DNA from: Octopus sinensis
Lineage: Eukaryota
Assembly: GCF_006345805.1 (NCBI RefSeq)
Contig: NC_043017.1
Location: 20,894,001-20,958,000 of the forward strand
Direction of reading: 5' to 3'
Length of the DNA: 64,000 nucleotides
Positions within the stretch are counted from its first letter, which is position 1; each line of letters starts with the position of its first letter. The notes under the pieces were generated by a model. It was not told where the DNA came from. It searched no databases and saw nothing but the letters and a program-made list of their open reading frames with translations. Both the position numbers and the translations under genes were made by a program. This document shows positions 19,815 to 63,075 of this stretch, in pieces.

Positions 19815-20135
19815 AATATTAATAAATCTCCGAACGAGATGTAAACAGTAACCGCTCAACAACGTAAATCAGTGACAGTGGTAGCTGGGAAAAACATTAA
19901 ATAGATATTCACCAACAGGTCACTCCAATCGAAAATCGGTGATTACCGTACGTTGACGAGAGGCAAATACCTCGAAACTATAGTCCGTATGTATCCCTTT
20001 GCGAATATCAGAAGGGCACAGAAAGTGTGTCTAAAGCCAGCTGGAGACGATGATCTCCTGGGGCTATAAGCTTCAGTAACACCCACCCCCAGTGGCTAGC
20101 CACATTCAGATGGCTAGTACACTTTACGTTGAGGT
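19815..20135 (+). mobile_element. Penelope-like/retrozyme-like element family H1 with 5' inversion
   Basis: 19938-20127 is homologous to 38068-38288; 19822-19868 is the inverted copy of the segment at ~37930-37972; carries a hammerhead fold. Confidence 0.75.
19947..19991 (+). ncRNA. type I hammerhead ribozyme (U3 variant)
   Basis: CGTACG-TTGACGA-GAGG caaata CCTC-GAAA-CTATAG-TC-CGTATG: stem I, core YUGANGA, stem II, GAAA, palindromic stem III and GUC site (predicted cut after 19985). Confidence 0.82.
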
Positions 20136-22345: not shown

Positions 22346-22389
22346 ACACCTGATGAAGGCTGGAGGATGTATCAGCCGAAATGTTGTGT
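22346..22389 (+). ncRNA. minimal type I hammerhead ribozyme
   Basis: ACAC-CTGATGA-A-GGCTG gaggatgtat CAGCC-GAAA-TG-TT-GTGT; stem I ACAC/GTGT, stem II GGCTG/CAGCC, minimal stem III (AATGTT, probably CpG-decayed AACGTT). Confidence 0.78.
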
Positions 22390-41229: not shown

Positions 41230-41232
<3 letters not shown>

Positions 41233-41600
41233 GTAGGTGAATGAATTATCCTAGTATTGATAATTCGGTTAATCGATACCTGGGTAGCAAATTCACGTCA
41301 GAAAACACGGTTGTAGCTATATGCCAAGGGTAGAAACTCCGTTGACGTCATTGCTTATAACGGATTTTTAAAAAAACATTCATTATCACTGTGAACACCA
41401 TGTAGGAAGCCATAAAAAAGTTTTTGTCCGTCTTGAGGCTGATAGAGGTTCCTTGTCTTTCCTGCTGAGAAGACGGCATAATGCACCCTTTATTCCTTCG
41501 GAATTAAGAATATGCAGTCTTCGAAACATGTGTTGAAAGTAAAGGCATTTTGTTAAAATCTTCGTTCGACTCCATTCTTTCATTTATTCATTTTAAATAA
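41230..41600 (+). mobile_element. Penelope-like non-coding element family H2
   Basis: 41418-41591 is homologous to 47449-47623 in the same orientation, and 41230-41342 to 47657-47768 in inverted orientation; flanked by (TA)n. Confidence 0.78.
41451..41545 (+). ncRNA. type I hammerhead with long stem II, core mutated (CUGCUGA)
   Basis: CTTTC-CTGCTGA-GAAGAC..GTCTTC-GAAA-CATGTG-TT-GAAAG; stem I CTTTC/GAAAG extended by CCTT/AAGG. Confidence 0.68.
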
Positions 41601-46720: not shown

Positions 46721-47431
46721 TAATTAAGGAGAAAAGAGATTTATACATCCAGGGTTTATTAGTCACTTAATTACTTCATGTTAGTACCTTTTGTTGTTTG
46801 TTCCTTCTCAAGCCATGCCTGGTTCATAAGGGCCGGTTTCCCCGGTTTCTTGGTGTATAGGTTCCCCACCTGGATGGGACGCCGGTCCGTCACAGGTGAG
46901 CTGCAAGATGCAGGAGGAAAGAGTGAGAGAAAGTTGTGGCGAAAGAATCAGCAGAAGTTTTGCCATTATTTTCTGCCAGAGCTGCGTGGAGCTTAGGTGT
47001 TTCGCTCGTAAACACCCGGTCTGAGATTCAAACCTGTGATCACAAGACCGCAAGTCCTCTGCTCTAACCACTAGGCCATGTGCCTCCATATCAGTACCTA
47101 CATATGTTTCTGCTGCAAGTCAGTGTACACTGCAAATTTTACATCGTGATATGCATTTCAGTGTTAATTACTGATGCCAGTTCTTAAGGGTACTATTAAC
47201 TGCATTTCAGATCCAATTTGAACTGAATATTTAGTTCAAATGGAATCTGAAAGGCATTTAATAGTACCCTGAAGGAGTGGTGTCAGTAATCAATGCCAAA
47301 ATGTGCACCATGATGCAAACTTTGCAGTATGCACTGACCTGCATCAGAAACATATGTAGGTACTGACATGAAAAGAAGTAATTAATTGAATAATAAAACC
47401 TGGATATATAAACCTCTGTTCTCCTTAATTA
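46721..47431. mobile_element. foldback (hairpin) MITE interrupted by a SINE
   Basis: 47088-47370 is an imperfect palindrome centred on TTGAACTGAATATTTAGTTCAA; 46721-46789 pairs with 47358-47431. Confidence 0.85.
46790..47087 (-). mobile_element. tRNA-headed SINE (family T), complete with TSD
   Basis: Head GGAGGCACATGGCCTAGTGGTTAGAGC, A/C-rich tail; TSD ATGTTAGTACCT (46778-46789) / ATATCAGTACCT (47088-47099). Confidence 0.88.
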
Positions 47432-47448
47432 TTAATATATATATATAT

Positions 47449-47770
47449 AAAGTTTTTGTTCGTCTTGAGGCTGATAGGGGTTCCTTGTCTTTCCTGATGA
47501 GAAGATGGCATAATGCACCCTTTATTTCTTCGGAATTAAGAGTATGCAGTCTTCGAAACATGTGTTGAGAGTAAAGGAATTTTGTTAAAATCTTCGTTCG
47601 ACTCCATTCTTTCATTTATTCATATAAAAAAAACGCACAAATTTCCACACAAGAACACGGGGTTTCTGCCCTTGGCATGTAGCTTCAACCGTGTTTTCTG
47701 ACGTGAATTTGCTACCCAGGTATCGCTTAACTGAATTATCCATACTAGGATAATTCATTCACCTACTTAA
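47449..47770 (+). mobile_element. Penelope-like non-coding element family H2, second copy
   Basis: Rearranged homolog of 41230-41600, inserted in (TA)n. Confidence 0.78.
47481..47579 (+). ncRNA. type I hammerhead ribozyme with extended stem II
   Basis: CTTTC-CTGATGA-GAAGAT g GCATA..TTCG..TATGC a GTCTTC-GAAA-CATGTG-TT-GAGAG; stem I extended by TTCCTT/AAGGAA; intact core; GUU site (predicted cut after 47566). Confidence 0.8.
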
Positions 47771-48325
47771 ATATATGTATATATATATGTGTGTAAGTGT
47801 GTGTGTATGTGTATGCATATGTGTTTGCCCTACCCCACTTCTTGAAAACCGGTGTTGGTACGTTTACATCCCTGTGATTTAGTAGTTTTTCCGAAGAGAC
47901 CGATAGACTAAGTATTAGTCTTAAAAATAAGTACTGAGGTCATTTCATTCGACTAAAGTCCTTCAAGGTGGTGCCCCAGCATGGCCACAGTGAAATTACT
48001 AAAAACAAGTGAAAAAAGAAAAGAAAAAGAAAACATAAAACAAAAAAAAAATGAAAATAATGAAATTGTCTTCAGCCATGGACTGGTGTTGTATTGATTT
48101 GTTTAAATGAAGCTTTATCACATTTTGACAAATATAAATGCTAAAATAGTGAAAAAGAAATTTGAGAAATAAAAAAATAAATTAAAACAAAGAATGTAAT
48201 AAAAATAAAAAATAAAATGAAATGAAAATTATTTGACATCTATTCAATAAAATATTAACTGTTTAAATTCGAAATTCTCTGTATATAAATTATCACCATG
48301 CTTATCATGTTTCTAAGTGTTGATC

Positions 48326-61735: not shown

Positions 61736-63075
61736 AGGGGGGTAGAGGAAAAAAAAAATGAATCAATATAGGATCGTTATCACACAAATGTCAATATGAA
61801 GTGTAAAGGGGAGGACAGGTGAGGTTTACCCGTGGAAAGAAAAGCCTGCGGAAAAGACCACGGTAACCTCGGTCAATGAAGTCACATTTCATATTTCTTT
61901 TTTTTTTTTTTTTTTTTTTGCAAATAAGCAACTCTCTGTTTTCGATTTCTGGGTTCATAGGACTATGTCAAGGTGGCTTCGTCATTCATACGTGCCATTC
62001 TTGCTACATTCACCCATTTTTTTTAAAACATTCGCTAGACAAAACTTGCCTCTCTACTCTCACTTTCCTTTTCAAGTGGTACTTGAAGAAGTTGATGAGA
62101 GATTGACCAGAGAGGAAAGTGTTTGTCTCCAATCCTTTCAGACGCGTCCACCAGATACATTCTTTCGCCATAGCCACAAGGATGATGAAAATAGCTCTTC
62201 CTTCCCGTTTGAAGGAAGGAGGCGTGACAATATTGACGATAGACTCAGCTGATAAACCGACTCGTCCCACACGTGACAGCAGTTGTTCGACATAAGCCCA
62301 CAGGTCGGAAATTGTTGGACACTGAACGAGTGCGTGCAGAACGGTTTCGTCGCTCTTGACCGCATCTCGGGCAGGTCGGCCCCGTGTTTCTCGAGCCGTG
62401 TCTGTAGAGCTTATCCCGAACGGGTAGCGCTTCTCGGTTAGCACTGCCAGGCCAGGGATCTCTGGAAGTTGTCCATGGGCCCTGGCCCGAAAGTCGTCCT
62501 GAACAGGCGGGTCAGGTACTCCTCGTCGACGTCCAGGTTCGCCCCGAGCTCGTCGTCGTACCTCCCCTCCACTAACCCTATAGAATGCTTTGGTTGTGTT
62601 GAAGTCACTTAAGGTCGACCCAGGACGGCAGAGTTGCTTGAGAGCAACGCGACACTCGCGGTGCCATTCGCCCTTCCTCGGCCTCTTTTTGATCCACGAC
62701 TGCAGTTCGGTCATGGAGACGAGCTGCGGGAAAGCGTGCCTCACAAACGGCGACCACACCTGTTCACCGTCGTCTACATAGAGCCAGAGATGTCGCAGTC
62801 TCAGCGCGTGTCTGCGCATCATCAACCACGGCATGCCCAGCCCTCCTTTAACGGGTGTTGACAGCAAATGGATCGCCTGACCATCGGGACGCATCCTTTC
62901 CACAAGAAGCGAAAGAGGATGCGTTGTAGTTTGGTGATGGTAGGGTCGGGACAAGGTACGACGGTCAGGCGGTAGTAGATGACGGACGCGATGTACGGGT
63001 TCGCCACCTCCGCTCGACTTTTAGGGACAGTTTCCTCTCGGCCCATTGCCGGGCGAGAGTGACCACCCTACTCGT
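61542..63075 (-). mobile_element. 5'-truncated Tx1/L1-clade LINE (post-RT region, zf-RVT, 3'UTR) with 9-bp TSD
   Basis: IASVIYYRLTVVPCP..LFRFLWKG, GGLGMP and CPRCGQ..ETVLHALVQCP zinc knuckle across frameshifts; AATAAA at 61548-61553; TSD AGAGAGATA at 61533-61541 and 63076-63084; CpG-rich. Confidence 0.9.

Follow-up and report, generated by a model that had tools for sequence, protein, structure and literature searches.

An extended stem II is known from a plant satellite hammerhead. In that ribozyme the peripheral contact slows cleavage (PMC3152364). Among viral type I hammerheads, 'long helix II' denotes 6-8 bp (PMC13725137). In hammerheads of PLEs, helix II measures 6-8 bp, helix III can be small and palindromic, and activity as dimers is low (PMC4209133; also PMC6765202, PMC7761336), and the descriptor given for them allows a stem II of 3-7 bp with a loop of 3-10 nt, at most 24 nt (PMC4209133). 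A core search in Naiad elements allowed 7-17 nt and described eight cases with core halves 35-50 nt apart; by the same source, PLE copies are 5'-truncated, have two ends, may be inverted at an end, optionally carry a tail of 30-40 bp on one side and target (TA)n (PMC8557442). In a PLE of the anole, reverse transcription starts at two internal sites downstream of the hammerhead, in an AC-rich loop, and the hammerhead cleaves only with protein and is unneeded for insertion in vitro (PMC11167929). Retrozymes, a further group, are tandem (PMC7229834; bioRxiv 10.64898/2026.07.22.740005). What the hammerhead does in PLEs is still debated (PMC7761336, PMC11167929), and a family that keeps a 42-nt extension of it offers a simple test.

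We analysed a 64,000-nt stretch of the Octopus sinensis genome (NC_043017.1, positions 20,894,001 to 20,958,000 of the forward strand; hereafter the window), which is AT-rich, microsatellite-rich animal DNA, and found at 47481-47579 a full type I hammerhead layout, open at stem I, by sequence and predicted fold (Table 1). The sequence marks of the type are all present (an NUH site, CUGANGA and GAAA), as are three helices round the core with G10.1-C11.1 and A15.1-U16.1. An earlier note on this DNA had reported an intact CUGAUGA/GAAA core and a bulged stem I; both are borne out, stem I consisting of CTTTC/GAGAG and TTCCTT/AAGGAA around a GT/TA 2x2 loop, with fold probabilities of 0.82-1.0. Pairing between the two outer extensions in Table 1 could make this stem longer than that note supposed. 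The hammerhead motif is genuine and far above chance expectation: on resampled 64-kb windows, a loose descriptor gave 0.015 matches per window (3 of 200 windows) and a strict one a single match in 200. Folding energy by itself is unremarkable (z -1.85). A local Rfam scan of 47400-47800 returned six matches with E up to 10, no hammerhead among them, and over the whole window the best 150 of 412 Rfam matches were microsatellite noise. A short ORF that begins inside the core, spotted by eye, was taken as chance.

Table 1. Coordinates of the hammerhead, its repeat unit and the second copy in the window.
Feature	Position	Strand	Details and basis
Block A, hammerhead-bearing repeat unit	47449..47625	+	94% identical to 41417-41600; for many copies of the family, the end lies in (TA)n near 47626
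Upstream segment	47460..47464	+	predicted to pair with core 47496-47500, which would block the active fold; pair probability 0.82-0.9
Stem I, 5' strand	47472..47493	+	47489-47493 (5 bp), GT loop, 47481-47486 (6 bp), possible extension 47472-47479
Catalytic core C3-A9 (CUGAUGA)	47494..47500	+	sequence; none of the variant rows listed falls here
Stem II, 54 nt	47501..47554	+	6 bp from G10.1-C11.1, G.A mismatch, 5 bp, asymmetric internal loop, distal hairpin 47521-47539 (UUC loop)
Core G12-A15.1 (GAAA)	47555..47558	+	sequence
Stem III	47558..47565	+	8-nt self-complementary stretch; 2 bp as monomer, 8 bp as dimer
Cleavage triplet GUU (family GUC)	47564..47566	+	predicted cut after 47566, from sequence
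Stem I, 3' strand	47567..47587	+	47567-47571, TA loop, 47574-47579, extension 47580-47587
AC-rich spacer that links blocks A and B in some family members	47626..47656	+	bridging contigs in X1, X2, X19
Block B, second element end, then TA-rich repeat	47657..47768	+	92% identical to 41342-41211 inverted
Block A, second copy; its hammerhead (41449-41547) carries core change A6C	41417..41591	+	comparison with copy 47481
Inverted block B, left end of second copy, adjoining (TA)n	41231..41342	-	sequence comparison
74-nt stretch, putative element sequence upstream of block A	41343..41416	+	arrangement of the second copy

Contigs of four public runs (X1, X2, X19 and X7; four coded organisms, four studies; 4 of the 24 runs listed) were aligned to 47430-47800 at a floor of 80% identity, below which short-armed relatives would escape; X1 may derive from the source of the window itself. 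The runs yielded 1834, 1167, 550 and 83 aligned contigs; X7 is only guessed to be RNA and is silent on transcription. The family is clearly abundant, with a summed depth over the core of 470,000 in X1 against 24-51 for seven of the eight listed pieces, depth not being a copy number. None of the 40 variant rows listed (of 54) affects a core position, and flanking positions among them vary at 5-100%. The X1 tallies by kind place all listed C, T and G>A changes outside the core; a further 3-4 X1 variant positions (A>C, A>G, G>T and possibly A>T) could fall within it. Among the rows listed for the four runs there is no indel at 47486-47586, no joint among those listed shortens stem II, and five listed records of 83-93% identity cover at least 47497-47575, each with no more than one gap. 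Loose ends reveal subfamilies in which the 3' strand of stem II is different and ~1 base shorter. The long arm belongs to the family as a whole and is no peculiarity of copy 47481, which rules out a recent insertion in this copy, itself a decayed family member. The RNA is of a known type, but the arm common to this abundant repeat family of animals gives it a new shape. Elsewhere, a metagenome scan gave 26 loci, none matching beyond 27 nt; viral scans gave one chance match and otherwise none; and prokaryote genomes gave none. The family is undescribed in the literature found on octopus or long-stem-II hammerheads (Lunse et al. 2017 and Arkhipova et al. 2017 may hold long-stem variants), and the available text of a 2026 octopus repeat annotation (PMC13282606) does not mention ribozymes.

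The arm itself agrees closely with the 54-nt stem II of the earlier note: GAAGAT/GTCTTC (IIa) and GCATA/TATGC (IIb) are separated by a G.A mismatch, and the whole holds ~19 bp in 54 nt. When the 99 nt are folded, stem I, IIa and four of the five IIb pairs have probabilities of 0.82-1.0, two terminal pairs 0.43-0.48 and the monomer stem III 0.07; the minimum-energy structure is 2.3 kcal/mol below the hammerhead fold. The note had called the architecture of stem II atypical. Its length is, being outside the stem II range of the PLE minimal-hammerhead descriptor (PMC4209133), but the 6-bp base falls within the known 6-8 bp; the unusual part of stem II is the 42 nt beyond that base. The distal hairpin is also predicted, but in the family the TTCG loop ascribed to it gives way to UUC, as the family has C at 47527 (about 100% of depth) and with it a distal stem of five Watson-Crick pairs. 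As an isolated hairpin, copy 47481 favours the UUCG register only marginally, and the second copy, at 41449, has -3.6 kcal/mol in the UUC register versus +1.8 in the UUCG register; this C and these energies rule out a UUCG tetraloop as the family loop. A pseudoknot of 47517-47522 with 47476-47481, seen by eye, was discarded: it is mismatched in copy 41449 and missing in subfamilies with other upstream sequence.

Across the seven 5' contexts tried, the pair probability of stem IIa never drops below 0.94 (0.94-1.0), whereas that of stem I is predicted to fall to 0.07-0.16 once the upstream 47449-47480, with its core-pairing segment, is included; the arm is therefore the predicted stable part of the structure. 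Given this predicted loss of stem I, cleavage would need a partner RNA, protein or co-transcriptional folding. A longer cofold that includes 47449-47480 is not a double hammerhead.

Stem III is minimal, as the earlier note had it, with 2 bp in the monomer, but the palindrome ACATGT was taken in the wrong register: that 6-nt register would put the cleavage site in the wrong place, and the dimer register is 47558-47565, reading ACAUGUGU in copy 47481. In most family sequence this stretch is a perfect palindrome because of A at 47562, the majority letter in three of the four runs (71, 73, 66 and 33% of depth); the resulting ACAUAUGU accounts for 66-73% of depth in X1, X2 and X19 and 33% in X7. 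Palindromic 15.2-16.2 and loop 3, as in the PLE minimal hammerhead of PMC4209133, are both present. The suggestion that GUU is a CpG-decayed GUC also gains support, since the family has C at 47566 (97, 97, 98 and 64% of depth; about 97% in X1, X2 and X19, 64% in X7) followed by G. In an unconstrained prediction, two native copies cofold as a double hammerhead with an added A14-U17 pair (-56.6 kcal/mol); the double hammerhead without that pair, its core free, has -54.0 kcal/mol against -47.8 for two monomers. It has 8 bp through the palindrome and exchanged stem I strands. U17 of copy 47481 is able to pair with A14, and the family C17 is not.

Compared with the metazoan PLE type I hammerheads of Cervera and de la Pena (2014, PMC4209133), the locus shares topology, core, G10.1-C11.1, a 5-bp stem I, dispersed solo copies and a predicted dimer, and with their D. 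virilis, rotifer and shrimp variants it shares a small palindromic helix III. It differs in its 54-nt stem II, in a well-formed extended stem I where theirs has an ill-defined loop 1, and in that G10.1 directly follows A9, the customary extra nucleotide of the PLE minimal hammerhead being missing. It lies outside the minimal-hammerhead class as defined in PMC4209133. The chrysovirus 'long helix II' (PMC13725137) resembles it in exceeding the usual 4-5 bp, but that form stays at 6-8 bp, its helix III is longer and it is active in cleavage as a monomer.

The element anatomy is that of an A-spacer-B unit lying between TA repeats, and (TA)n loose ends behind 47626 occur in 25, 24, 13 and 3 contigs of the four runs. 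A 10-bp perfect hairpin at 47732-47757, 11 nt before the end of block B, is a candidate priming or end signal. In the second copy, (TA)n is followed by an inverted B, then by 74 nt and by A, which ends in (TA)n again, and the contigs contain opposite-strand joints from A to spacer or B (47513/47679 in X2, 47588/47637 in X7; one contig each). Copy 41449 and these two single-contig joints show the PLE trait of 5'-truncated copies with an inverted copy at the 5' end, and the (TA)n insertion is that of Neptune and Naiad elements. The two ends lie ~140 nt apart, against the 30-40 bp tail described for PLEs. None of the 72 window ORFs scanned (of 206 candidates) reached a curated Pfam cut-off, and among them no ORF for RT and a GIY-YIG endonuclease, which in PLEs lies between pseudo-LTRs, is linked to the repeat. 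The earlier note had spoken of PLE hammerheads, and the hammerhead is indeed of the kind found in PLEs; membership itself, which the note assumed, is likely here from the insertion anatomy, our one line of evidence for it. As the octopus Naiads do not match, we would guess, by target choice, Neptune as the clade.

Among described PLEs, the Poseidon element of the green anole, PAc (Frangieh et al. 2024, PMC11167929), also has a hammerhead upstream of the element end, AT-rich targets, two end points and AC-rich sequence at the inferred priming site; here, by contrast, there is no linked ORF, the spacing of the ends is ~140 nt, and cleavage is a prediction and help from protein a possibility. Naiad and Neptune PLEs (Craig et al. 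2021, PMC8557442) likewise have (TA)n targets, 5' truncation and inverted end copies. Identity with the described octopus Naiads was rejected: four family motifs gave 0 matches in the supplement of that paper, and the octopus Naiad ends compared from it differ. Outside the window, the Naiad_Obim and Naiad_Ovul 3' ends in the same supplement appear by eye to contain hammerhead blocks in which the cleavage site comes first, then GAAA and then CUGAUGA; the site would be GUA, stem III would have 5 bp, stem I 6 bp and a weak stem II only 2 bp. Such an order resembles the type-SGC permutation (PMC10085705) and could explain their 'half core' label.

We consider it probable that the locus, a type I hammerhead motif whose stem II spans 54 nt, sits on a likely 5'-truncated PLE end (pseudo-LTR) and, by prediction, needs to be dimeric to cleave after 47566. 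A single copy's stem III being too weak, the palindromes of two copies would pair and their stem I strands would be exchanged, forming a double hammerhead, possibly with help from the element's protein; the hammerhead would then act like a PLE-type dimeric hammerhead. The arm would fold independently and keep stem II closed at its G10.1-C11.1 base; for cleavage, the 40 nt furthest out are likely dispensable. Priming at two sites ~140 nt apart, near 47626 and 47768, would give rise to plain and inverted-end copies, the product of the outer site presumably being the inverted one. Copy 47481 is a decayed solo insertion, likely weak or silent.

An alternative accepts the PLE hammerhead and makes its long arm a required module, either a docking partner of the stem I internal loop or a binding site for RT; we think this unlikely, and it is doubtful to the same degree that the arm is a selected module, for long-range docking or for binding RT, and marks out a so far hidden class of retroelement hammerheads with long arms. 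The four coded organisms and diverged subfamilies retain the arm length, yet shared length among copies of one transposon is descent. Both stems have internal loops, as tertiary contacts need (PMC3088659), although the sole pseudoknot found (by eye) is restricted to copy 47481. Changes at 47506, 47527, 47539, 47548 and 47569 preserve or close pairs, those at 47548 closing the G.A mismatch (12% of depth in X1), and U>C at 47521 and A>G at 47539, which are pairing partners and may be a compensatory pair, are equally common in X1 (21% each) and X7 (33 and 31%). Against this, their shares are unequal in X2 (3% vs 26%), and linked two-sided covariation could not be demonstrated in the contigs of the four runs. 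G>A at 47533 (5-21%) disrupts the distal hairpin, and G>A at 47571 (27-32% in three runs) and T>C at 47481 (40-46%) also break pairs, none of the three with a partner change listed. The earlier note held that differences from the second copy keep pairing via G-U; three of the six differences inside the ribozyme do exchange G-U for Watson-Crick pairs or the reverse, but one lies at a loop edge, one is the core change A6C and one breaks a stem I pair. We set the G-U pairs aside as compensatory evidence: they are plain transitions, expected in any decaying copy, since T47506 lies at a CpG and C-to-T in a C-G pair always yields U-G. Evidence for selection on the arm is mixed. Were the module real, motifs missed by Rfam and by descriptors that allow no more than 17-24 nt could explain some PLE families scored hammerhead-less; were the arm dispensable, it would be a structural footnote only.

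Two further readings strike us as improbable. In one, the family is a non-LTR retrozyme, made of short tandem units that are cut by their hammerhead and spread via small RNA circles, with the window copies as strays. Like metazoan non-LTR retrozymes (PMC7229834), the unit is short, non-coding and AT-rich, with a type I hammerhead, a weak helix III and a bulged stem I, and solo monomers derived from PLE ends exist (bioRxiv 10.64898/2026.07.22.740005). However, head-to-tail tandem units of 150-450 bp, a retrozyme hallmark, are replaced here by two solo copies in (TA)n, one with an inverted end; no tandem array was seen in the window, and none of the four joints listed is head-to-tail (backward). 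The other reading, to which we give just as little credence, is a non-cleaving relic, that is, a family amplified with a hammerhead-shaped sequence no longer of consequence. It would fit the predicted sequestration of the core, the A6C change of copy 41449, which reduces activity (PMC3088659) and there accompanies the broken stem I pair, and the finding that hammerhead mutants leave insertion of the anole PLE in vitro unimpaired (PMC11167929). It fits poorly with a core free of variants in the 40 rows listed beside such variable flanks, and with GUC and the perfect palindrome as the majority state.

Neither Rfam nor either of two published descriptors captures this hammerhead family, abundant though it is in animals, and hammerhead counts in such genomes may therefore be too low; for the same reason, calls of 'no hammerhead' for some PLE clades may be unreliable.

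The window holds other features of note. On its minus strand, 62010-63020 is a 336-aa open frame without a Pfam match, which we take to resemble the C-terminal part of a LINE protein. An ordinary minimal hammerhead of another repeat lies at 22350-22385 on the plus strand, with an intact core and a 21-nt stem II but without stem III, a short-armed counterpart to the long-armed family. A hammerhead-like motif at 19953-19985, also on the plus strand, has U replacing C3 and a stem II of 14 nt, and its stem III is palindromic. Just to the left of the long-armed hammerhead, 47087-47370 forms an imperfect inverted repeat of ~280 bp (80% self-match), possibly a small DNA transposon.
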